From Armatimonadia bacterium (GTDB lineage Bacteria > Armatimonadota > Zipacnadia > Zipacnadales > UBA11051), in NCBI GenBank assembly GCA_039683575.1, contig JBDKRC010000243.1, forward strand, positions 1 to 64,000: a stretch of DNA of 64,000 nucleotides, given 5' to 3'. Every line of letters begins with the position of its first letter. Position 1 is the first letter of the stretch. The notes under the pieces were generated by a model. It did not search any database. It was not told the origin of the DNA and saw only the letters and a list, made by a program, of their open reading frames with translations. Both the position numbers and the translations under genes were made by a program. Shown piece after piece: positions 2,500 through 42,044 of the stretch.

Positions 2500-5118
2500 A
2501 TGCCCCTGCTTCGCCTCCTGCCCGCCCTGCTGCTGTTTGCCGCCTCCGCCCCGCTACTTCACGCGAATGACACCGGCCTGAAGTCCCACCCGTGTGTGCT
2601 CATCAACGCCAAGACGCTGAAGGCCCTGCGCGAGAAGTGCCGTGACGCCAACCCCAACCGCTTTGGCTTCAAAACCGCAGACTCCTGGGCCGCGATCAAG
2701 GAAAGAGCCGACAAGCTTGCCGCAGCGCCAACCTATAGCTATGCCGTCAACTGCCCCGGCGAGGGCAATGTCACCCTCGACCGCTTCGAGTACACCCTTT
2801 CCGATCAGACCCCGCCCCGCCACGACAAGAGTCCGAATTACCCGCCCTGGACGGCCATGTTTCAGGAGCGCTCGGACAGTATCACCACTCGCCTGGTTCA
2901 CTTCAGCTTTGCCTATCTGGTCACGGGCGACCAGCAGTACTTCGACAAAGCCAAAGAAATCGCCCTGCACCTTACGCACTGGGATCAGTGGACTGACCCC
3001 AGCTACGGTGCCGGGGCCCTGAAGTGTTGCCTCGATACCGGCCACTGCACCTATGCCATGGGCATGTTCTATGACTGGTGCTATGACAAGCTGAGCGAGG
3101 CTGAGCGAACTCAGGTGCGCGAGGCAATCATCAACAAGGGCATCCTCGCCGCTCTGGGCGGTGTGGATCGTTACGCCCCAGATACTAACGGTTACGCCGT
3201 CATCCTCTCCGGCGCGGGCCTCGCTGCCCTGGCTGTACGCCCCGAGGACCCCCGCGCGGGCGAGTGGCTGCAGGCCTGCCTCGACAAAACGGTGGTCTCC
3301 CTCGACCGCGGCGGCAAGGACGGCGGCCCCTTCGAGGGCCCGGGGTATGGAACGTACCTGCTCGATTCGTTCGCGCTCTTCTTCGACGGTCTCGTCTCGG
3401 CCCAGGTCGAGCACAAGCTCTTTGAGCATCCCTACCTCGCGACCATGGACCGTTACTGCATCGGGCTGCTCTCCCCGGACACTAAGCAGATCCCGTGCTT
3501 TTCCGACGGTAGCCCCAGTGTCGCGGTCCCCAAGCTCATGAACATCCTCGCCCAGCGCGGCAGCACCGACGCCGCCTGGTATCTCGAGCAGATCAGCGCG
3601 ATTGAGCCTGAAAGCATATACGACTTCATTCGCTTCGACGAGAGCAAGCTCAAGCCCGCGCAGCCCACCTGGATACCCTCCTCCGTCTTCTACGACATCG
3701 GCCACGCCTCCCTGCGAGATGGCTTCAATGCCAAGGCGCCGACGCTATACCTGAAGTCGGGCCCCTACACCAACAGCATCGGCCACAACCACTTCGACCA
3801 CAACTCCTTCGTGATCAGCTACGGCGGGCAGTGGATCATCCCCGACCGGGGGTACCACAACTTCTATGTGCCAGAGAAGCGCAAGTTCAGCCTCGGCAGC
3901 CTCGGCCACTGCACCATCACGATGGACACTGACGATACCTACTTCACGAACCACAAGGTCCCATACGCCGGCAGCGAGCAGGTTAAGGTCACCGGTGGCC
4001 GGATTGTAGACTTCTTCGGTGGCAAGCGCTTTGACTTCGTGAAGGGCGAGGCAGCCGAGGCGTACAACACGAACCAACTCAAGGTATTGGACCGCTTCGA
4101 CCGCAGCATCGTGTACCTCAAGCCCCACATGTTCATCATCCGCGACCAGCTTGAGGCCCCCAAGCCTCATCGCTACAACTTCATGCTCCACACCGACGGC
4201 AACGGTGAGATAGTGCAGCAGGGCGAGGTCTTCTTCGTTAACCGCGGCAATGGCCAGGTATACACACAGATCACCTCACCCGCCAAGCTGACCCCGCACA
4301 TCCAGACGTACCCTGGCGCCGAGAACTACGGCCAGTTCCTGCGGATGGAGACCGAGCCGGTGGCCAAGACCAGCTTCCTGACCGTCCTCTATCCTCGCCC
4401 CTTCGCAAGCGAGAACTACCTGCGCAACGGTGGCTTCGAAAAGGGCATGACCGGCTGGACGCCCCGCGCTGCTGAAGACCTGCCGAACCACAAGATCGAG
4501 ACCGCGGGGATGGCCGAGGGCAAGCAGTGCGCCAGCATCGAAAACAGCGGCTACTACTACTCGGAGCGGTTTGGCCTGCCGGTCGGCACCACCCTCACCG
4601 CCCGGGCCCAGGTCAAAACCACGCCGCTTCCCCAGGGCAAAGGCGCGAACATGACCTTCCACTTCTGGAAGGCTGGCAAGGCCTTCGCCAGCAAGCACGT
4701 CGGCCCGTTCGCCGACGAGGACTGGACCGAGCACGAACTCGTGGCCCAGGTGCCCGAGGGAACCGAGCAAGTCTCGCTCGCCCTGGAGTTCGCCGCCCCG
4801 GGCAAGGCGTGGTTTGACGACGTCCGCCTGGCCACCGATCTGCCCGTCCCCGAGGCCCTCACGCCGCAGATTCGGCAGCTCGGCCCGGAGGCGCTCGACG
4901 TCACGGTTGGCGCCGACCGCTTCCTCGTCAGCTTCGGCACCCCCGGCGAAACCCGCAAGGTGGGGGAGATGGAGACCGACGCCGAGTTACTGGTGGTGAC
5001 GCTGGATAAGGCCGGAAAGCCGGTGCGGGTGTTCATGGACAAAGGCACCCGTGCCCTCTACCAGGGCCGCAAGCTGGTCGTCACAGACAAGCCCTCGACA
5101 GCCGAAACGGAACTGTAG
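2500..5118 (+). CDS. Secreted heparinase II/III-like polysaccharide lyase with a CBM4/9-like domain
   Basis: Signal peptide; HPxVL start; GHNHFDHNSFVISYGGQWIIPDRG heparinase II/III motif; NYLRNGGFE...WFDDVRL jelly-roll module. Confidence 0.8.
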   Translation: MPLLRLLPALLLFAASAPLLHANDTGLKSHPCVLINAKTLKALREKCRDANPNRFGFKTADSWAAIKERADKLAAAPTYSYAVNCPGEGNVTLDRFEYTLSDQTPPRHDKSPNYPPWTAMFQERSDSITTRLVHFSFAYLVTGDQQYFDKAKEIALHLTHWDQWTDPSYGAGALKCCLDTGHCTYAMGMFYDWCYDKLSEAERTQVREAIINKGILAALGGVDRYAPDTNGYAVILSGAGLAALAVRPEDPRAGEWLQACLDKTVVSLDRGGKDGGPFEGPGYGTYLLDSFALFFDGLVSAQVEHKLFEHPYLATMDRYCIGLLSPDTKQIPCFSDGSPSVAVPKLMNILAQRGSTDAAWYLEQISAIEPESIYDFIRFDESKLKPAQPTWIPSSVFYDIGHASLRDGFNAKAPTLYLKSGPYTNSIGHNHFDHNSFVISYGGQWIIPDRGYHNFYVPEKRKFSLGSLGHCTITMDTDDTYFTNHKVPYAGSEQVKVTGGRIVDFFGGKRFDFVKGEAAEAYNTNQLKVLDRFDRSIVYLKPHMFIIRDQLEAPKPHRYNFMLHTDGNGEIVQQGEVFFVNRGNGQVYTQITSPAKLTPHIQTYPGAENYGQFLRMETEPVAKTSFLTVLYPRPFASENYLRNGGFEKGMTGWTPRAAEDLPNHKIETAGMAEGKQCASIENSGYYYSERFGLPVGTTLTARAQVKTTPLPQGKGANMTFHFWKAGKAFASKHVGPFADEDWTEHELVAQVPEGTEQVSLALEFAAPGKAWFDDVRLATDLPVPEALTPQIRQLGPEALDVTVGADRFLVSFGTPGETRKVGEMETDAELLVVTLDKAGKPVRVFMDKGTRALYQGRKLVVTDKPSTAETEL

Positions 5119-9606: not shown

Positions 9607-11346
9607 CTAGGGCTGTGTCCGCACCCTTCGCGCTATATACTCGGCATCGACCGCCCCCGACTTGCGCCGGGCCTCTACCCACTGCGCCAGTTCCTCTCCT
9701 GCTTCCCTGGCCCGCGCGGGGTCCTGCGCCACGAGTTCTCGCCAACTCCCCAGTCGCTCGAGCAGTTGCACCCCAGTCTGCGCCCTCTCCACCGCCTCCC
9801 GGTGCCGCCGCTCTCCCCGCGCCGCCAGTGCAATCGCCCGGCCCAGGTGCTCCAGCGCGGGCTGCAGCAACTGGTGCGTCGCCCGGCGGGTGTACTCAAG
9901 GTCATAGTGGTACACACACGGCCCACGTGCTATGAAACTACTTTCTAAAATACTAAAATACTCCAGCATCTCCCCCGCCGCCGCTCCGTACAGCTCCTGG
10001 TAGTACCCTGCACGGTACTCGTCCAGCCGGGCTTCCGGGTCCCAGGCCAACCGCCCGATCAGGTGCGCGTTCTCACCGTAAGGCCCCCACTCCTCCGGCT
10101 TGAACTCCAGCACAAAGCCGTCTACACCAATCCCGGCATAGTACTGGAAGTCCGCGGGCAGCACGGGCTCCAGCCGGTATGGCAGCGACATCATGTCAAT
10201 GAGCATCAGGTACTCAAACAGGTAGAGCGTTCCGGGTACAATACCCCGCCACTGCTCCAGCAGCCTCGCATACCGCTCGTTCGGCCTGCTGCACCCCTCC
10301 TCGCCCCGGATTGCGTGCCTGAAGCAGCGCTGGAACGGGGCGAAGCATACCTTCACGTTCGCCAGCGGCACCGTCTCGCGTGGCGGCTCGATGTAGTTGA
10401 CATAGGCAAGGGCGCTCAGGAAGCGGTCTGGATGCCGCTGCGCGACCCGCTCGGCCACCGCATTGACAAACTTCAGGTAGGTGTCGGTCCGGCGTGGCTG
10501 CGAAGGGTACACCCCCGATGGCTCCTGGGGCTCCAGTGACAGGCACTCCGCGCACTCACACCAGCCGTACCCGTCGTTAGGCCACAAGCCTACCATATCG
10601 ATCTCGGGATGCTGGTCGAGGAAGTCGCAAACCCGCGCTGCCATCGCCTCGGCCACCGCCGGGTTGGACGTGCAGACCTGCCCCTTTGTCGAGCGCTCCC
10701 CCTGTAACTGGGCATACCATTCTGGATGCTTCTCGAAGAACTCCTCCGGCGGCAGGAAGAACCGGAAGCTATGGTGGCCCATCTCCACCTTCATCCCCCG
10801 CCCGACAAGCTCCCGCCGCAGCACCTTCTCATACGCCTCCAGGCTCCCTGCCGCATTGGCGAAGATCATGAAGCGGTTGAAGCGGTGCTTGGCCATCCAA
10901 TCGACCATCGAGACGGTGCGTTGATCAATGGCGGGGTAGTTGGTGAAGGCGCGGTGGGTCATCGCAGGCCGGAACACCTGTCGCTCGCACGGCACCTCCA
11001 ACGCCTCGATGCGTGGCACGACCTCGCCACCCTCAAAGTCAGAGAGCCAGCGGCACCCGGCGTGGCTCTCGAGGAGGTGGTACACCGCGAACAGGACGCT
11101 GAGCGCGCAATCGCCCCACAGCGTGACGCGCCCCTCCTCAACCTCCCATCCATACTCCTCCGCCTCGCCTGGCTCAACCCGCAGCACAATCGCCGATCCG
11201 TCGGCCTCTTCCGCTACCTCAAACCACGCCCCGGTAATGATCGCCAGGTACCTTGCCAACTCGTCGGCCGCAAAATCGAGTCCGGCCTCCGCAGGCCGTA
11301 CAATCCGGAACTCAGTACTACCATCTCTGGCAATGATCATGTGCAT
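9607..11346 (-). CDS. DUF4838-like putative glycoside hydrolase
   Basis: GH20/67-like N-domain (AADELARYL); HHSFRFFLPP..F.KHPEWYA..G.R...QVCTSNP; PNDGYGWCEC.EC. Confidence 0.8.
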   Translation of the reverse strand: MHMIIARDGSTEFRIVRPAEAGLDFAADELARYLAIITGAWFEVAEEADGSAIVLRVEPGEAEEYGWEVEEGRVTLWGDCALSVLFAVYHLLESHAGCRWLSDFEGGEVVPRIEALEVPCERQVFRPAMTHRAFTNYPAIDQRTVSMVDWMAKHRFNRFMIFANAAGSLEAYEKVLRRELVGRGMKVEMGHHSFRFFLPPEEFFEKHPEWYAQLQGERSTKGQVCTSNPAVAEAMAARVCDFLDQHPEIDMVGLWPNDGYGWCECAECLSLEPQEPSGVYPSQPRRTDTYLKFVNAVAERVAQRHPDRFLSALAYVNYIEPPRETVPLANVKVCFAPFQRCFRHAIRGEEGCSRPNERYARLLEQWRGIVPGTLYLFEYLMLIDMMSLPYRLEPVLPADFQYYAGIGVDGFVLEFKPEEWGPYGENAHLIGRLAWDPEARLDEYRAGYYQELYGAAAGEMLEYFSILESSFIARGPCVYHYDLEYTRRATHQLLQPALEHLGRAIALAARGERRHREAVERAQTGVQLLERLGSWRELVAQDPARAREAGEELAQWVEARRKSGAVDAEYIARRVRTQP

Positions 11347-12793: not shown

Positions 12794-14974
12794 TCATTGT
12801 GCCGCCACGCCCTCCTGCGCCATCACAGTTTCTGTCAGCGCCCGCTCCACCAGCACCTTGCCGCCCTGTTCAATCTTGATCGCGCCGCCTACCGGTCCCG
12901 ACGTCGCCAGGGTCACCGTCACCTGTTTGCCCGCCGCCTCAAACCTCAGCACCGCTTGCCCGTCCCGCGTCTCCACCTTCCCCTCCGTCATCCCCTCCAG
13001 CTTATTGTCGCCCACCTGTAGCAGGTGCAGGAAGACATCCTCTGCGCGGGCCGCCCCCGGCTTTACTTCCAGCCGCCACCGCCCCATCAACTCGGGGACT
13101 TCCTTGTACTCAAGCGGCTTGATGCCGGTGTACTCAGCCTTCTTGATCTCCTCGGCTGGCCCCGCAGTGATCGAATAGTTGACGCCGTCGGCCAGGAACT
13201 CTTTGCCCGGCCCACCGACCTTCTCAACAGACGCGTCGCCCGGCAGCAGCGTCTGGCAGAAGATGCGGCCCTCGCCCTGGTCCGCCCGCGCCACTCGCCC
13301 CTGTAGTTGCGGCTCGTTGGCGAAGTGAAGAAGCCACGTTTTGGCAAACTCCGGCTTCGTGGCCGCTACCCGGTCGAACACCACAAAGTAGTCTGGCATG
13401 ACGAAGATGAACTGCCGCACCATCTGGCGGCACTTCTCCGCAGAGTACACTGGTGTCGCGTCCGCGGCCACATACGTGTACAGCGGGTTCGTCTCAAACG
13501 CAATGATCTTCGAGCCCACCTGCGAGTTCTGGCCGCCGGGCTGAGCCGTCACCTTCCCGTTCCAGTACTGCGTTGGCGGCTCTCCAGGCATCTTGATAAG
13601 CACGCAGTTGTGCGCTATGGTCTGGGCAAAGTAGTTTTGCAGATTGTCGGTGTTTCCCTCACGCGTCCCGGTGTCCAGCGCCAGGTAGCCCCGCTTGTAC
13701 ATCACGAAATTGGTCGCATCGAAATGCGTGTGCTGGTTAGTCTTCGCCCCGGCCGTGAACAGCGCGTAGGTATCCTCCGGCCCGCTCCCTGACCGCATGA
13801 ACACCTGCCCCATCATCTCAAAGAACCGCGCCGGCGGAAGCTTGCCCGGGTCTTGCGGCGGTGGGGCCTGCTCAAGCCCCGTCAACAGGAACGGGTAGAC
13901 ACACCAGATGGCGTCGTTGAAGTACTCCGGGAACAGTCCCCCCACATACCCCGCCAGCGCCGCTGCCTCCGGCTGCGACTGGCCGTAGAAGTGCCGCACA
14001 TGCGCCATGTGGGTATACATGAGCCAGCGGGACAGACGGTTGTCCTTGTGCGGCGTGTCCCCGTAGCCGTATTCCAGCAGCCCCGGCAGCACGTTCCACA
14101 GCACGTAGTTCGCGAAGGTGGCCAGGTACGGCCACTTCGCCGAGTCATCAATGCCCGCCGCCGACTTCAGGCAGTGCAGGTAGTTCCACTCGGCCAGCGG
14201 GTAGTCGGCGAGGGAATACCCCAACGTAGCCGAGGCCGCCCCGCCGTCGTCGCCACACATCTCTGCGCGGTGCGCCAGTAACTTCTGGTAAGTGGTATAG
14301 CCCTGCTCGATCAGCTTAGCTGCCGCCGCGTCGTCAATGCCTTCCCCATACAGCGCCAGCCCTGTGAACAGGGCGAGGTTATCGTCACCATAGTACCCGG
14401 TGGCGGGACCCGAGCGATTCTGCCGCTGCAACAGCTTCCCCGTCAGTATCTCGTTTACGTGCTTGAGGAAGCTCGCGGCCAGCTCCTGGCGTTCCTGGGG
14501 CTGCAGGTCATTCCACACCCAGTCCAGCGCACAGAGCCATCCCATGCGGCTGCGCGCGTACCAGTTCACAGACTTGCCCTGCGCCGTGCAGGCGTGGTAG
14601 TAGTCCAGGCTCGCCCACAGCATCTCCCGGATCTTCTGCAGGCTGGCAGCATCCGAAGTAATGCGGTAGACGAAGGCCTGATTCATGAGCCGGTCGCCAT
14701 AGTCCCGCGCCTCAAAGCTGCTCCCAGCGCGCGTGGGCGGGCGCTGGATCGCCGACCACTCGTACTTCGAGACTGGCAACTCGCCGGCCTTGCGGACCTT
14801 CTCAAGCTGCTGCGCCATTACCCCCTCGGCCCGTGCCTTCACCGCGGGCCAGGTGTCGGCATTGAAGTACAGCCGCGGATGGTCTCGACGGATCTGGCCC
14901 AGCCATGGGACCGTCTGCGCTCCCACCTGCGCGCAAAGCCCCAGCAACACCAACAGAGCGATTGCTTTGGTCAT
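12794..14974 (-). CDS. Secreted heparinase II/III family polysaccharide lyase
   Basis: Signal peptide; HPRLYF; QHTHFDATNFVMYKRGYLALDTG; QTIAHNCVLI; GRWRLEV. Confidence 0.88.
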   Translation of the reverse strand: MTKAIALLVLLGLCAQVGAQTVPWLGQIRRDHPRLYFNADTWPAVKARAEGVMAQQLEKVRKAGELPVSKYEWSAIQRPPTRAGSSFEARDYGDRLMNQAFVYRITSDAASLQKIREMLWASLDYYHACTAQGKSVNWYARSRMGWLCALDWVWNDLQPQERQELAASFLKHVNEILTGKLLQRQNRSGPATGYYGDDNLALFTGLALYGEGIDDAAAAKLIEQGYTTYQKLLAHRAEMCGDDGGAASATLGYSLADYPLAEWNYLHCLKSAAGIDDSAKWPYLATFANYVLWNVLPGLLEYGYGDTPHKDNRLSRWLMYTHMAHVRHFYGQSQPEAAALAGYVGGLFPEYFNDAIWCVYPFLLTGLEQAPPPQDPGKLPPARFFEMMGQVFMRSGSGPEDTYALFTAGAKTNQHTHFDATNFVMYKRGYLALDTGTREGNTDNLQNYFAQTIAHNCVLIKMPGEPPTQYWNGKVTAQPGGQNSQVGSKIIAFETNPLYTYVAADATPVYSAEKCRQMVRQFIFVMPDYFVVFDRVAATKPEFAKTWLLHFANEPQLQGRVARADQGEGRIFCQTLLPGDASVEKVGGPGKEFLADGVNYSITAGPAEEIKKAEYTGIKPLEYKEVPELMGRWRLEVKPGAARAEDVFLHLLQVGDNKLEGMTEGKVETRDGQAVLRFEAAGKQVTVTLATSGPVGGAIKIEQGGKVLVERALTETVMAQEGVAAQ

Positions 14975-14989
14975 GCTGCCCCTTTCCCC

Positions 14990-15026
14990 AAAAAGCATGA
15001 GAGCCCTCCCGCAGGAAGGCTCTCAT
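14990..15026 (-). terminator. Intrinsic terminator downstream of the mini GyrA-CTD gene
   Basis: Minus strand ATGAGAGCCTTCC-TGCG-GGAGGGCTCTCAT-GCTTTTT. Confidence 0.75.
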
Positions 15027-15054
15027 AAGACCACAACCAGTCGCAAATCTACAA

Positions 15055-15360
15055 CTAGACCAACGCGCCCACGATTTCGTCGTCGTCGGCAACGTTCATC
15101 ACGCGCACGCCACCGGCCTGCCGGCTGCGGGTCGAGATGTCGTCCACATTGGTCATCAGAGCCATACCACCGGCGGTCACCAGCAGTACGCGCTGGCCCT
15201 TGCCAGTCTTCACGTGCTCTACGACAGCCACAGTGCCACTGTCCTCTGTAACCTTGAAGCCACCGACGCCACGGCCGCCGCGACCCTTGGTCGGGAACTC
15301 GCTCTCGTCAACAACCTTACCAAAACCCTTCTTGGTTACGATCAGAACTGCTTCAGCCAT
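15055..15360 (-). CDS. Stand-alone DNA gyrase subunit A C-terminal repeat protein (two pinwheel blades, 101 aa)
   Basis: VLIVTKKGFGK...EFPTKGRGGRGV and VLLVTAGGMAL...DISTRSRQAGGVRVMNV..DDEIV match GyrA CTD blades; SD AAAGGAG. Confidence 0.85.
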   Translation of the reverse strand: MAEAVLIVTKKGFGKVVDESEFPTKGRGGRGVGGFKVTEDSGTVAVVEHVKTGKGQRVLLVTAGGMALMTNVDDISTRSRQAGGVRVMNVADDDEIVGALV

Positions 15361-15390
15361 TTGGTATGTCTCCTTTCCAGATAACCCTAC

Positions 15391-15429
15391 TAGGCCCACA
15401 TTGTAGACAAAATAGGCCTAAGTGCGCAA
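15391..15429 (-). promoter_or_regulatory. sigma70 promoter with overlapping inverted repeat
   Basis: TTGCGC-N18-TACAAT; imperfect IR TAGGCCCACATTGT-AG-ACAAAATAGGCCTA (15391-15420) covers the -10 box. Confidence 0.65.
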
Positions 15430-15493
15430 GAGGGGCTTCCTGCGGCTTTTCGGCTGCACCTCCCAGGTGCGCGCCGCCGAGTTTTCACACAAG

Positions 15494-18100
15494 CTACTGC
15501 AGCTTCACAACAACAGTGCCCTGAGCGGGGATTTCGAGAGTTAGGACGTCGCCCGGCGCCGGCACCGGCTCTCCGTTCGGGACTCTCCTGGCCTCGATCC
15601 GGCGCAGCCCGAGCGCCTTCTGGTCTACAGTCACCCGCGCCTGCTCCGGGGCCTCGGAGGGGTTGTGGATCACGAGATAGCGCCCGTAGCGTTCGAGGCG
15701 CAATGTGGATGGCAGGACCCTGGCGCAAGTCATCGGCTCCCAGCCGGCGGTGGCCAGATCGCGGAAGGTCTGAGCGAACCGGGCCATCGTCTCAGGCGTG
15801 TTGCCATGTCCCGGGAAGATGCCATGCAACTGATTGCGCTGCAGTTGCCAGTCGGGGACGGGCTTGTACGGCAGGTCGGTGCAGAGCTTGTGGCGGGCAA
15901 TCGCGCGCGCAAAGTCCGGGTCGGCGAACTGCGGGGCCTCTGCGCCCAAGACATCCAGATACGGCGCGGCGAAGGTCAGCCAACCCGGTGTGGTGCCCCA
16001 CGAACAGTTGGCCATCAGAACCATGTTTCGTCCGTGCATGTCCTTAGCCAGGTCGCGAGCGAACTCCACCGAAGAGGTGAACATCGCGATGACCGGTTGC
16101 TTGTCCATGGCCGAGAAGGTCAGCGGGGAGTTGACATACTGGAAATTCTCCCGCCGGTAGTTCACGCGGCTGTACTGCCCGTAGCCGCCGAAAGAGTCCA
16201 GCGCAATGCCATCGTAGTGCGCGCCACTCTCCAGCATGCTCTTCAGGCCAGACTCAATGAAGACCTCGCGGGCAAACCAGCCCTTGCCCTCGGGGATGTC
16301 GGGATCGAGGCTGCAGGGGAAGATGAACCCCAGCTGGCTCTCGCCCATCCAGGGATACTTGCCGCCTCCTCCGCTCGGGGTGCCGTCAGCCTCGTAGTTG
16401 ACGGAATTCAGAGTTGCCCGCGAGACCACCTGCATGGCCTCTCGCGGCGAATGCCGCTTCACCCACCAGGCGGGCACGTAGGAATGGGCGTAGCTGAGCT
16501 TCTCGTACTTCGCGAGTTCCTCCGGGTCACCCGCGGCTACCTTGCGTAGTCGCTCGAGCGCTACACTGAAAGGTGGCAGTGTCTCGTAGTCGCCCATCGT
16601 CTGCTGGTAGAATTCCGCCTCGATGTACTGAAGCGCGGTAGCGCCGTTGTCGTTGTCCCACTTGACGCCTTTCTCCTGCGGGCCCCAGTGCATGCGGAAG
16701 CCCGCCTGCAGGGCCTGTGGCATGTCGCGCATGTCACCCCACACGTACCACCCGCCCTGCTCTTTTACCCGGTTGGTGAAGAACTCGGGGAAGAAGTCGT
16801 AGTACCGCTGCAGGGCCGAACGGAAGCCCCAGGCCGGGTCGTGGCGGTAGAGCAGGAAGCGGAAGGGGGCCTCGCTGAGGGACTGGCCGTGGATGGTCTT
16901 GCCCGGCGTGAGGCCGAAGTCCAGGGCGAGGTAGAACAGGCGCAGGGTCGGGATGTAGCCAATCCGGTGCACGACGGGTTCATCCATGCGGACACCGAGG
17001 CTATAGCCGCTCTTGCCGGGCAGAGAGATGGCGCCGATGGGGTACTTGGAGTGCTGGCCGTTGAGGCCATAGCCCATGCTGCCCTCAAGGTATGAAAGCT
17101 CGCCTTCGGGGCCGGCTTTGGTGCGGCTGGCGGCCACGCTGTCCCACCACTGCCACTGGCCCTCCGGCACCGGAAGCGCAAAGTAGAGCGTCACCGCGCG
17201 GTCTTCCCGGCGCAGGTCGCGGACAACGCCGCTGATCTCAACGTATGGACCCACGTTGCGGTAGACAGCCTCAACGCCCAGTCCGAGCTTGTCTATCCGA
17301 GCTGATTGGGCCAGGTCCTTTCCCCGTCGCGTGACGTTCCCGCCGACCATCATGGGCGGGTCGTCTTGCTGAGCGTCTCTAATCAGCAAGCCGCTGAGCC
17401 CTCCGGCGGTATGTCCATCCACGCAGACGCCGCCGGGCTTGCTGAGCCCCAGCGAGAGGCGGTCGGCTGTGGTGAGCGTCAAGGCGGCTGGAGCGGCCTG
17501 GGCTGTGGGCCACGACTGCTTGCCATAGATCTGGGTATCGAAGGCCACCGCCTCGTCGCCGACACCCTCAAGCTGGGCGACGGCGAACTCCCACTTCAGC
17601 GGCACGTTGCCTGCTGCGGGCTGCTCGTACAGGTACATGTCAAGCTGCAGGATGTTGCTGCGCTGGATTGGGGTCAGCCAGTCGGTGTACTCGACCCAGC
17701 GGCCGAGCGGGACACTGTGCTCCACCGACTGCTGCCACATCGGCTTGTCCGCAAGCTCCGCGTGGCGCTTCTGGTCGTCATAGAAGACGATGGCCAGACG
17801 GCGTTTGCGGGTGCTCTCGTCTTCGCTGGTGACGCGCACCTTCAGGCGCAGGCGGGTGTAGCGGCTCCAATCCTGCGGTGTCTTGAAGGACAGCCGCAGC
17901 TTGGGGTAGTCCTCCTCGCCGCCGTTCGGAGTGATCACGGTCGCAAGCGGGGCCTCAGGGGTCGGCGCGGCCAGATCCATCTTAGTCGTGGGGCGATCTA
18001 GGTTCGTCTCCCACTGGTTTGGCGGTGCCAGGAGGTCAACGGTCTGCGCTGAGACGAGGGCACTGCAGAGCAAGCTCACAGCCAGCAGGAGGCGGTACAT
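15494..18100 (-). CDS. Large secreted hypothetical protein, possibly carbohydrate-active
   Basis: Signal peptide; 868-aa ORF; YDGIALDS-type TIM-barrel-like motif. Confidence 0.75.
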   Translation of the reverse strand: MYRLLLAVSLLCSALVSAQTVDLLAPPNQWETNLDRPTTKMDLAAPTPEAPLATVITPNGGEEDYPKLRLSFKTPQDWSRYTRLRLKVRVTSEDESTRKRRLAIVFYDDQKRHAELADKPMWQQSVEHSVPLGRWVEYTDWLTPIQRSNILQLDMYLYEQPAAGNVPLKWEFAVAQLEGVGDEAVAFDTQIYGKQSWPTAQAAPAALTLTTADRLSLGLSKPGGVCVDGHTAGGLSGLLIRDAQQDDPPMMVGGNVTRRGKDLAQSARIDKLGLGVEAVYRNVGPYVEISGVVRDLRREDRAVTLYFALPVPEGQWQWWDSVAASRTKAGPEGELSYLEGSMGYGLNGQHSKYPIGAISLPGKSGYSLGVRMDEPVVHRIGYIPTLRLFYLALDFGLTPGKTIHGQSLSEAPFRFLLYRHDPAWGFRSALQRYYDFFPEFFTNRVKEQGGWYVWGDMRDMPQALQAGFRMHWGPQEKGVKWDNDNGATALQYIEAEFYQQTMGDYETLPPFSVALERLRKVAAGDPEELAKYEKLSYAHSYVPAWWVKRHSPREAMQVVSRATLNSVNYEADGTPSGGGGKYPWMGESQLGFIFPCSLDPDIPEGKGWFAREVFIESGLKSMLESGAHYDGIALDSFGGYGQYSRVNYRRENFQYVNSPLTFSAMDKQPVIAMFTSSVEFARDLAKDMHGRNMVLMANCSWGTTPGWLTFAAPYLDVLGAEAPQFADPDFARAIARHKLCTDLPYKPVPDWQLQRNQLHGIFPGHGNTPETMARFAQTFRDLATAGWEPMTCARVLPSTLRLERYGRYLVIHNPSEAPEQARVTVDQKALGLRRIEARRVPNGEPVPAPGDVLTLEIPAQGTVVVKLQ

Positions 18101-39729: not shown

Positions 39730-40701
39730 TCATATCGCCTCCAGGTCCTTATACTCAAACACCCCCGACATCGCCCGGCTGGTGGTCGAAAACCCCGCCT
39801 CCTCCGCTGCTGCTATGGGGTTCAGCCCCGCGCAGATCACGAACCCCATGCGATCCACGCCCACGTCCATCTCGAGCAGCGGACGGCTCTCCGCTCCAAT
39901 CGCGATCACTCCCTTGAGCCGCCATGCCGCCACAGCGTCTACGAGGCGCATTACGTGGTCCCGCGCGAGCGCCGGGCACACCCGGAAGCCGGCCCCGACC
40001 TTCCCCCGCCCTGTGCTGATCGCCTGCCCGACCGAACTCGCCTTACCCTTGATGAAAACCTCCACCGGGTCAATCGAGGTCCCCCCATACCGGATGATGT
40101 CAGTAAACCGCACGGGCTCGTAGCCAGCGATTTCCAGGAGGCCCCCAAACTCCGACTGCACCGGGATGCCATGGCTGAGCAAGATTCCGTTCAGAGTCAC
40201 TGCTGACACCGTCCCCAGCCCGATCATCCCCCGCGGGATCACCTGATCCATGATCTTCTGCCCCGGGTTGAACACCGCCACGAGATCGCTCGTGGCATAG
40301 CGGGACAGAAAGGCCGGCCGCATCACCTTCATGGCCTGGTCAAACTCCGTCTGGCGAAACAGCGACAGGTTAATGACAATCTTCCCGGCTCCCTGCTCGA
40401 GGCTGAACTGCGTCAAGTAGGCCAGGGTCTCGATGCGCGCGAAAGTCAGGGCCACCTGGTCCGCCACGCGCGCGTTCGCGAGCTCGGCCTTCCCCGCCTC
40501 GGTAAGCTGCCGCCCCGCTCGTCCCAGGTTCTCCGTCATCCCCAGTGCATCGAGCGCCTGAAGATGGTATCTGATCGCCCTTTCGGTCAGTTCAATGCCA
40601 TGCGTTTGCAGCGCTCGGGCGATGGTGCTGCCCCCCAGGGGGCCGCCGTGTTCGCCAAGCACACGAAGTATTGCGAATTCCTTCCGCCCAATTTCCGGCA
40701 A
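39730..40701 (-). CDS. nrpR: NrpR-family (DUF128) nitrogen-responsive transcriptional repressor
   Basis: N-terminal wHTH (TERAIRYHL..LD..G...GRQLTEAG..EL) and NRD domain (TVSAVTLNGILL..GIP...FGGLL, RFTDIIRYGGTSIDP.EVF, GLNPIAA); SD AGGAGG before TTG at 40701. Confidence 0.88.
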   Translation of the reverse strand: MPEIGRKEFAILRVLGEHGGPLGGSTIARALQTHGIELTERAIRYHLQALDALGMTENLGRAGRQLTEAGKAELANARVADQVALTFARIETLAYLTQFSLEQGAGKIVINLSLFRQTEFDQAMKVMRPAFLSRYATSDLVAVFNPGQKIMDQVIPRGMIGLGTVSAVTLNGILLSHGIPVQSEFGGLLEIAGYEPVRFTDIIRYGGTSIDPVEVFIKGKASSVGQAISTGRGKVGAGFRVCPALARDHVMRLVDAVAAWRLKGVIAIGAESRPLLEMDVGVDRMGFVICAGLNPIAAAEEAGFSTTSRAMSGVFEYKDLEAI

Positions 40702-40818
40702 GATAGGCCTCCTAAGTGGCTTTTCCACAACCATTTTTGCCGTATAACCGGAATAAGACCAGGAAGCGGCGGCTACCGCAAGCCCGTAACCACGCCACTA
40801 ATTGCCGCTAAGCTGCTC

Positions 40819-40877: not shown

Positions 40878-40964
40878 TTGCGAGGAAGCAGAAACCAGAT
40901 CCGCATCGCTCGCTACCTGGGCATCGCAACGCGATCGCCCTTCAGCCAAAACAGGATCACGATC

Positions 40965-42044
40965 ATGCACCGACTGCCAGACTTCAAAATCCCCGCCGCC
41001 TGTGGCACTTGCGGGATCCTCGACCGCACCGGCGCCCGCTTTTCCGGCGCGGAAGTAGTACGCGGCATGGCCAACATGCACGAGCGTGGCAACGGCCTTG
41101 GCGCTGGCTACGTCGCCTACGGCATCTACCCGGACCATGCCGAGGACTACTGCCTGCATATGATGCTCTCGGACGAGGCCTCGCTCGGCCGCGCCCGGGA
41201 CTACCTGCAGACGGTCACCACCATCAACCACGATGAGCCCATCCCGACCACGCCGACGCCGACCATCGAGGACGAGCCGGTCCTGTGGCGCTTCTTCGTC
41301 CAGCCCCGTGAAGACAAGATCACGGTGGGGACCGAAGAGGACCACATGGTCGCGGCCATCATGACCATCAATCGCGACGTCGAGGGCGCCTATGTGGCCT
41401 CCAGCGGCAAGAACATGGGCATCTTCAAGGGCGTCGGCTACCCCGAGCCTATCGCCGAGTATTACCGCATCCCCGAGTACCAGGCATATCTCTGGATCTC
41501 CCACACCCGCTTCCCGACCAATACCGGCGGCTGGTGGGGAGGAGCCCATCCCTTCGGTCTGCTGGAGTGGTCAATCGTCCACAACGGCGAGCTCTCCTCC
41601 TATGGCGTCAACAAGCGCTATGTGAAGTCCTTCGGCTACGAGTGCACGCTCTTCACCGACTCCGAAGTCATCAGCTACATGCTGGACCTGCTTTGCCGCA
41701 AGCACGGCCTGAGCATCGAGCAAGCGGCCATGGCCATGGCCCCGCCGGAGTGGGAGCAGATTGACGTCGAGCCCGATCCGAAGCGTCAGGCGATGCTCCG
41801 CGCCATGCGCGAGACCTACACCGGCGCCCTGCTCAACGGGCCGTTCGCCGTCATCGCCGGCCATACCAGCGGCATGGTCGGTCTCAGCGACCGCCTCAAG
41901 CTCCGCCCGCTGGCGGCAGCCACGAAGGGCAAGAAAGCCTACCTGGCCAGCGAAGAAGCCGCCATCTGGGCGGCCATCGGCGGCCAGCCCGAGGAATCCT
42001 GGGCCATAGACGCTGGCAAGCCCGTCCGCTTTGACCTGGACTAA
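40965..42044 (+). CDS. Class II glutamine amidotransferase subunit of split glutamate synthase (GltB domain 1-like)
   Basis: Short propeptide then CG; ERGNGLGAG, HTRFPTNT..WWGGAHPF, VHNGE, TDSE, DRLKLRP, ASEE. Confidence 0.9.
   Translation: MHRLPDFKIPAACGTCGILDRTGARFSGAEVVRGMANMHERGNGLGAGYVAYGIYPDHAEDYCLHMMLSDEASLGRARDYLQTVTTINHDEPIPTTPTPTIEDEPVLWRFFVQPREDKITVGTEEDHMVAAIMTINRDVEGAYVASSGKNMGIFKGVGYPEPIAEYYRIPEYQAYLWISHTRFPTNTGGWWGGAHPFGLLEWSIVHNGELSSYGVNKRYVKSFGYECTLFTDSEVISYMLDLLCRKHGLSIEQAAMAMAPPEWEQIDVEPDPKRQAMLRAMRETYTGALLNGPFAVIAGHTSGMVGLSDRLKLRPLAAATKGKKAYLASEEAAIWAAIGGQPEESWAIDAGKPVRFDLD

Follow-up and report, generated by a model that had tools for sequence, protein, structure and literature searches.

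The DNA analysed in this study, referred to as the window, is a stretch of 64,000 nucleotides from an Armatimonadia bacterium. On its minus strand it carries a short open reading frame, which begins with ATG at positions 15360-15358 and ends with TAG at 15057-15055. This reading frame, the signals around it and the large gene next to it are listed below in the order in which they are met along the minus strand, the two loops standing directly after the coding sequence that contains them.

15494..18100, minus strand: large adjoining protein, of which the window copy begins with a signal-peptide-like stretch (by eye)
15424..15429, minus strand: -35-like hexamer TTGCGC, a 3/6 match to TTGACA
15400..15405, minus strand: -10-like hexamer TACAAT, 18 nt after the -35-like hexamer and 39 nt before the ATG
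15391..15420, no strand assigned: imperfect inverted repeat TAGGCCTATTTTGT/ACAATGTGGGCCTA, with arms at 15391-15404 and 15407-15420, overlapping the -10-like hexamer
15370..15375, minus strand: ribosome-binding site AAGGAG, 9 nt before the ATG
15055..15360, minus strand: coding sequence with two GyrA C-terminal-domain repeats, 101 codons plus TAG
15268..15288, minus strand: GyrA-box-like loop KGRGGRG (residues 25-31, first repeat), agreeing at 5/7 positions with the consensus Q(R/K)RGG(R/K)G
15106..15129, minus strand: second rim loop RSRQAGGV (residues 78-85, second repeat), found as RSRxAGGV in 43 of 44 family members
14986..15027, minus strand: intrinsic terminator, a 14-bp stem with a 4-nt loop (stem 15027-14996) followed by CTTTTT, dG -25.7 kcal/mol

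The 101-aa product matched the Pfam family DNA_gyraseA_C (PF03989) twice, with an E-value of 3e-22 and 78.2 bits against the gathering cut-off of 27, and this HMM search bears out the proposal, made in a first-pass annotation of the same DNA, that the reading frame consists of two blades of the GyrA tail. The NCBIfam models of GyrA (TIGR01063 and NF004043) gave 64.8 bits against the equivalog cut-off of 902, with only the model positions 701-794 of 798 being matched. Since these models match only at their end and far below the cut-off, the protein represents part of a GyrA-type tail rather than a GyrA. By the same comparison the breakage-reunion domain is absent from the 101-aa protein, the flanking DNA being likewise without the catalytic part. 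The best sequence matches among solved structures were again GyrA C-terminal domains, with residues 743-835 of E. coli GyrA aligned. The two-blade gene encodes a small cytoplasmic protein that corresponds to two blades of the beta-pinwheel tail of GyrA. A longer form of 114 aa, starting from GTG at 15399, was considered and ruled out: the alignment of the relatives begins at the ATG, some of them have stop codons 0-1 codons ahead of it, and it is in front of this ATG that the AGGAG site lies.

The signals for expression were compared with those of related genes. An AGGAG-like stretch precedes the aligned start codon in all 37 complete relatives (by eye), in good agreement with the strong Shine-Dalgarno sequence claimed for this gene. 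The promoter claimed at the same time, TTGCGC-N18-TACAAT, was not reported by a sigma-70 scan of the window because the -35-like hexamer matches at only 3/6 positions, and its support comes instead from the comparison with relatives, in which TTGCAT or TTGACG stands at the place of this hexamer. A relaxed promoter pattern (TTGnnn, a spacer of 16-18 nt and TAnWnT) was detected upstream of 22 of the 38 family genes, at a distance of 39-68 nt from the start; it occurred in 69 of 6690 background windows (1%) taken from the same loci and in 47 of 3800 shuffles. The 22 upstream regions come from related loci and do not represent independent events. The site is retained as promoter-like, with the clade variants TTGCAT-N17-TAGAGT and TTGACG-N17/18-TACAAT. 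Across one clade (upstream regions L016, L018, L021, L023, L024, L026, L027, L031 and L033-L035), we observed a conserved promoter-like block, GCTTGCAT(T/C)-N-TTTCGGTTAGAGT or TAAAGT, at about 44-47 nt before the start codon, and its spacer segment 'TTTCGG/TTCTG' might be more than spacer.

The inverted repeat over the -10-like hexamer had been described as an operator-like palindrome. The repeat does exist, its 14-nt arms being separated by 2 nt and complementary at 11/14 positions (79%), but a repeat as good or better was obtained in 46 of 2000 intergenic shuffles, and 28 of 481 segments of the same size taken from the real window contained one; among the 38 family loci an inverted repeat overlapping the promoter-like site is confined to the window itself. 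Being marginal against chance and not conserved, it was discarded as a supported feature and is probably not a functional part. On the other side of the gene, the terminator held up well: its hairpin has a z-score of -3.95, none of 200 shuffles was as stable, and G+C-rich hairpins follow the stop codon in most relatives (by eye). The gene at 12797-14998 probably starts at its second ATG (MTKAIALL…; by eye), so that the terminator of the small gene falls between genes. A search of positions 14900-15600 against Rfam gave no family, the sole match having an E-value of 0.67.

The codon use of the small gene differs from that of its neighbours: GGT accounts for 0.44 against 0.07 of the glycine codons and GTT for 0.28 against 0.08 of the valine codons, and GC3 is 0.72 against 0.82. 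Codon bias was considered as a mark of high expression and dropped as evidence, the trend across the family being weak (GTT higher in 29/37 genes, GGT in 24/37).

In order to judge whether the reading frame is the broken end of a longer gene, the surroundings of the small gene were searched for the rest of GyrA. The full-length GyrA query of a tblastn search matched the window and 34 of the 39 related loci at the small gene only, and the first 500 residues of full-length GyrA gave no match within the 481,957 bases covered by the window and the 39 loci. A domain scan of 46 of the 51 window reading frames of at least 90 aa found no topoisomerase domain, and gyrA, gyrB, parC and parE never adjoin the small gene in the window or the 39 loci. 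The earlier statement that no gyrA remnant flanks the gene is confirmed by these searches, which contradict its being the split-off tail of a gyrA.

The neighbours of the small gene vary across the loci, with homocitrate-synthase-like, DUF6159, sulfatase, M42 peptidase and oxidoreductase genes among them, and the search for a conserved operon partner was abandoned after no functional or DNA-related link emerged. The most recurrent neighbour is the large protein without Pfam family listed above, 868-1196 aa in length, which adjoins the small gene in 8 of 40 sources, lying 107-129 nt upstream in L014, L016, L024, L033, L034 and L035 and 164 nt downstream in L005. Its look-alikes in the ESM Atlas are hypothetical proteins of Armatimonadota and Verrucomicrobiota, followed by DUF6259 and GH129-like glycoside hydrolases. 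Its position beside the small gene probably reflects conserved gene order rather than a functional link.

The region around the two-blade gene looks rich in genes for polysaccharide degradation, with two heparinase II/III-like proteins and a DUF4838 protein around the locus (2500..5115, plus strand; 9610..11346, minus strand; 12797..14998, minus strand). Two DUF1559/N-methyl pseudopilin-like genes lie at 1036-2350. Farther away in the window, a gene for an NrpR-type regulator (HTH_12 plus NRD1_2, E 4e-72; 39733..40734, minus strand) is divergent from a class-II glutamine amidotransferase gene (40878..42041, plus strand); NrpR is best known as the archaeal nitrogen repressor.

The small protein is one member of a large family. 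Among 5.8 billion proteins, a word-indexed search retrieved 59 relatives with identities of 58-99%, 55 of them 100-103 aa in length, and a profile constructed from 44 members recovered 1056 small proteins at E<=1e-5, of which the 120 listed are 100-126 aa long; the family includes hundreds of distinct sequence clusters. A profile search of 1.84 billion representatives was dominated by full-length GyrA, with 2 of the 150 best matches being about 101 aa, and has little bearing on the range of the family. The database names are generic, such as 'DNA gyrase C-terminal beta-propeller domain-containing protein', 'DNA gyrase subunit A' and 'hypothetical protein', and the sources are Armatimonadota and candidate division WS1. 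A genome scan with one genome for each of 185,579 species yielded 69 loci, and the small gene was found in 39 of them (L001-L038 and L048), in records titled Armatimonadota, Armatimonadia, Candidatus Zipacnadia or WS1, except for four titled only 'bacterium' or 'uncultured bacterium'. Six of the remaining 30 loci were examined, and all six proved to be full-length gyrA of other phyla with reading frames of 839-987 codons. A tblastn search against mobile elements matched 12 phage and 39 plasmid records, all at below 60% identity; of the matches listed, the 8 annotated ones are all gyrA and the other 12 carry no annotation.

The copies of the small gene are highly uniform in extent. Except for two cut by contig ends, the 39 copies are complete (37 copies, 95-104 aa), and both the start codon (32 ATG and 5 TTG) and the stop codon lie at the same aligned positions. 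For 38 sequences analysed by the Nei-Gojobori method, the median dN/dS was 0.245 (656 of 703 pairs with finite dS), with values of 0.04-0.25 in the closest pairs and a maximum of 0.85 in distant pairs, for which dS is compressed by G+C-rich codon use. One might still suppose that the gene is a functionless leftover from the decay of a duplicated gyrA 3' end, or an artefact of annotation, and the generic names 'DNA gyrase subunit A' or 'hypothetical protein' given by several sources are in line with such a view. Decay, however, is at odds with the constant length and the common start and stop of the 37 complete copies, with dN/dS well below 1, with the conserved ribosome-binding site and promoter-like site, with a confidently predicted fold (see below) and with the hundreds of sequence clusters, and we regard a remnant as very improbable. 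Short orthologues of about 100 aa had been named as a check on the gene, and their constant length and low dN/dS contradict neutral evolution. Taken together with the promoter-like site and hairpins in relatives and the absence of gyrA nearby, the comparison of sequences indicates that the two-blade gene is a real gene, which many lineages of Armatimonadota keep at a constant length and under purifying selection, as the first-pass annotation had supposed.

Two irregular cases were noted during this survey. One copy (L030:768-1052) lacks six residues of the GyrA-box-like loop, which is due either to natural variation that dispenses with the motif or to an error in the assembly. The third look-alike cluster from the ESM Atlas consists of 110-aa PF03989 proteins, with 77 members that are mostly labelled Actinomycetota (phylum known for 9), and could represent either small pinwheel proteins that form a second family of independent origin or fragments of GyrA.

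The relationship of the small family to the parts of the GyrA tail was examined with full-length GyrA proteins, of which 38 out of 67 considered gave three clean two-blade units. The unit of blades 5 and 6 scored best for the family profile in 36 of these 38, with typically 52-81 bits against 17-41 bits for the other units. The motif KGRGGRG aligns to the blade 5 position and not to blade 1, and one full-length GyrA (P0214) carries KGRGGLG at its blade 5 position. Among long proteins, the nearest were complete GyrA sequences with no more than 47% identity, and each of the three scanned has six repeats. In a tree of two-blade units (72 GyrA units plus 19 small proteins; 91 rows and 96 columns), the small family formed one group with an SH-aLRT of 94. 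Trees holding the family with unit 5-6, which gave the best likelihood, or with unit 3-4 were neither of them rejected (p-AU 0.91 and 0.82), the free quick tree search being poorly optimised and 96 columns being too few for placing the family among units 1-2, 3-4 and 5-6; the assignment to blades 5 and 6 is therefore based on the profile scores and not on the tree. Given these scores, the motif at the blade 5 position and the finding of small genes in one phylum only, we consider a derived origin more likely than an ancestral one: the family seems to go back to an old excision, or a partial duplication, that started from a complete GyrA tail. The suggestion that the small protein models the ancestral repeat unit of the pinwheel appears unlikely in view of the profile scores and of the restriction of the family to Armatimonadota and allied records.

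The structure of the monomer was predicted by AlphaFold2 with a pLDDT of 93.9, and Foldseek comparison against PDB gave GyrA C-terminal domains as the best matches, two blades being superposed with TM-scores of 0.89-0.91 and an rmsd of 1.4-1.5 A. The Foldseek matches listed included no solved structure of a small stand-alone relative. In the pinwheel the repeats swap hairpins, two strands of each repeat belonging to the neighbouring blade (PMC3797127), and because of this exchange a chain of two repeats is left with one hairpin and one unfinished blade, except where chains are linked head to tail. Prediction with three copies gave ipSAE values of 0.95, 0.95 and 0.94 against 0.21 for the best control. 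In the calibration of this score, which is only roughly valid for three copies with a custom alignment, 20 of 30 solved homo-pairs and 1 of 23 single chains attained this level. The partner pLDDT was at least 94, and at least 98% of the contacts were common to the runs. In the predicted contact, the first repeat and hairpin (residues 5, 7, 22-37 and 43-49) lie on the second repeat (57-71, 85-91 and 97-100) of the next copy, so that the GyrA-box-like loop falls inside the contact between subunits (residues 22-37). The complex prediction covers three copies only, and its output does not contain the ring-closing contact between copy 1 and copy 2. It may also mirror a memory of the blade packing in solved six-blade GyrA tails. 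Judging from this model, the two-blade protein probably assembles into a ring. The idea put forward beforehand, that three copies of a two-blade unit assemble into a symmetric pinwheel, agrees with the ipSAE values and the head-to-tail contacts, and stands as a prediction that may draw on the solved GyrA tails.

The most conserved columns among the 44 family members are the two rim loops, R27 G28 G29 x G31 V32 in the first repeat and R78 S79 R80 x A82 G83 G84 V85 in the second. Conservation is complete or reaches at least 90% at R27, G28, G29, G31 and V32, and is complete at S79, A82, G83, G84 and V85. The GyrA-box-like motif noted previously is present at residues 25-31 with the agreement given above; measured against the consensus (PMC8216471), 5 members agree at 7/7 positions, 14 at 6/7, 21 at 5/7 and 4 at 4/7. 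Residues R27 and R80 align with R766 (blade 5) and R817 (blade 6) of S. Typhi GyrA, the residue offset being inferred from the structure-match alignment. Alanine mutants of these two residues in S. Typhi GyrA bind DNA more weakly, with KD rising from 122 nM to 221 and 204 nM (PMC7210945).

These observations suggest a model for the function of the protein. The two-repeat chain, which cannot complete its own blades, would close a ring head to tail, and the simplest ring would be a flat, three-fold symmetric pinwheel of six blades made from three copies. Such a ring would bear six conserved basic rim loops, three of the GyrA-box-like RGG(K/R)G type and three of the RSRxAGG type, would bind duplex DNA and bend or wrap it on its perimeter, and would act as a small architectural (nucleoid-associated) protein or as a local modulator of transcription, as does Gac in Borrelia. 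In our estimate, the chance that the gene product is a small protein forming rings and bending or wrapping DNA falls a little short of even. The caution with respect to DNA binding comes from the charge of the proteins: the net charge of the 44 members has a median of 0 (range -5 to +4; pI 4.6-9.8), whereas the matching two-blade units of GyrA are basic, with median charges of +3 to +4. Since the conserved loops also lie in the predicted interface, they may have been conserved for folding and not for contact with DNA.

On this ground, the pinwheel ring might have been recruited for a job other than duplex DNA, for example the binding of RNA or protein or a role as a scaffold, with the conserved loops serving folding and assembly only. 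A net charge around zero, and down to -5 in some members, is consistent with such a recruitment, as are the location of the glycine-rich loops in the predicted interface and the lack of DNA-related genes in the neighbourhood. It accounts less readily for the persistence of R27, R78, R80 and a K or R at position 30, where the GyrA tail touches DNA, and every relative with a solved structure is a domain by which GyrA or ParC binds DNA. We hold a role away from duplex DNA to be rather unlikely.

A different possibility is that the protein acts on a type IIA topoisomerase, either by providing blades in trans to a short-tailed GyrA or ParC or by competing with the GyrA tail for the wrapped DNA, and so tunes supercoiling against decatenation. 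The closest likeness to GyrA blades 5 and 6 fits in with such an action, and blade 5 with its GyrA-box affects decatenation by the gyrase of M. tuberculosis (PMC8216471). In addition, ParC tails range from three to eight blades (PMC3797127), and a net charge near zero suits a protein partner as well as DNA. An accessory of this kind would nevertheless be one never encoded beside gyrA, gyrB, parC or parE in the window or the 39 loci, and its gene has a promoter-like site and a terminator to itself; six repeats are present in the closest full-length GyrA proteins scanned, and the predicted self-assembly would give a complete ring without a partner. We judge an action on topoisomerase to be improbable, and both this action and the role away from duplex DNA rank ahead of the decaying remnant.

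The DNA-bending ring may be compared with known systems. The tail of gyrase lets the enzyme wrap DNA and introduce negative supercoils, and to our knowledge it has been studied so far only as the six-blade domain of the large enzyme or as Gac. The small protein shares with the GyrA tail the PF03989 repeats, a predicted fold that fits two blades, and the rim-loop arginines of RGGxG and RxRxxGG at the DNA-contact positions of blades 5 and 6. It differs in having two blades instead of six, its own gene, no breakage-reunion domain and no acidic tail, in its low identity to every full-length GyrA found and in its charge around zero per two-blade unit. Gac of Borrelia burgdorferi is a free GyrA tail that binds DNA and represses ospC, and is reported to be the whole tail of 35 kDa, its translation beginning at an internal start inside the frame of gyrA (PMC10127594). 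Gac, as a GyrA-tail pinwheel free of the enzyme, is by analogy the model for the function proposed here. Unlike Gac, the protein of this study is of about 11 kDa with two blades and would need oligomerisation for making a ring. Its gene occupies a locus apart from gyrA and is equipped with a promoter-like site and a terminator, and an internal start within a gyrA frame is not the case here, as neither the window nor the 39 related loci contain gyrA. The GyrA of M. tuberculosis has a functional second GyrA-box in blade 5 (PMC8216471); the small protein has a GyrA-box-type motif at the same position, but in a free two-blade protein and not within complete gyrase.

For assembly from double repeats, the precedents are beta-propellers. 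The lectin RSL of Ralstonia solanacearum has two blades per chain. RSL is described as a trimeric beta-propeller (PMC11883740), and the designed protein Pizza2 self-assembles into a trimer (PMC7337062). As in these two, a double repeat would here trimerise into a six-blade ring, in our case by prediction only. RSL and Pizza2, a sugar-binding lectin and a design, are however propellers with one repeat per blade, and the small protein is a beta-pinwheel with hairpin exchange between blades, so that no sequence relationship is implied. Within the full-text literature searched, which includes few subscription journals, we found no paper on a stand-alone two-blade pinwheel. A free GyrA-tail protein is known in the form of Gac, and the family is already in the databases under generic names; what sets it apart from Gac is that it is separately encoded, of one third the size, and probably oligomeric. 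More tentatively, and with the chances rather against it, we propose that this would be the first natural beta-pinwheel built from separate two-blade chains: a three-fold DNA-wrapping ring with three GyrA-box-like loops, serving as a lineage-specific nucleoid-associated protein of Armatimonadota and born by excision of gyrase blades 5 and 6.

The two-blade family offers a natural test of whether pinwheels, like propellers, assemble from pieces smaller than a ring, and a minimal symmetric object for dissecting the bending of DNA by GyrA-box-type loops. It also provides a candidate chromosome-architecture protein in a poorly studied and largely uncultured phylum. If the proposal is true, the wrapping module of gyrase can work as a free oligomer, and the family would supply a minimal symmetric system for DNA bending by the pinwheel.
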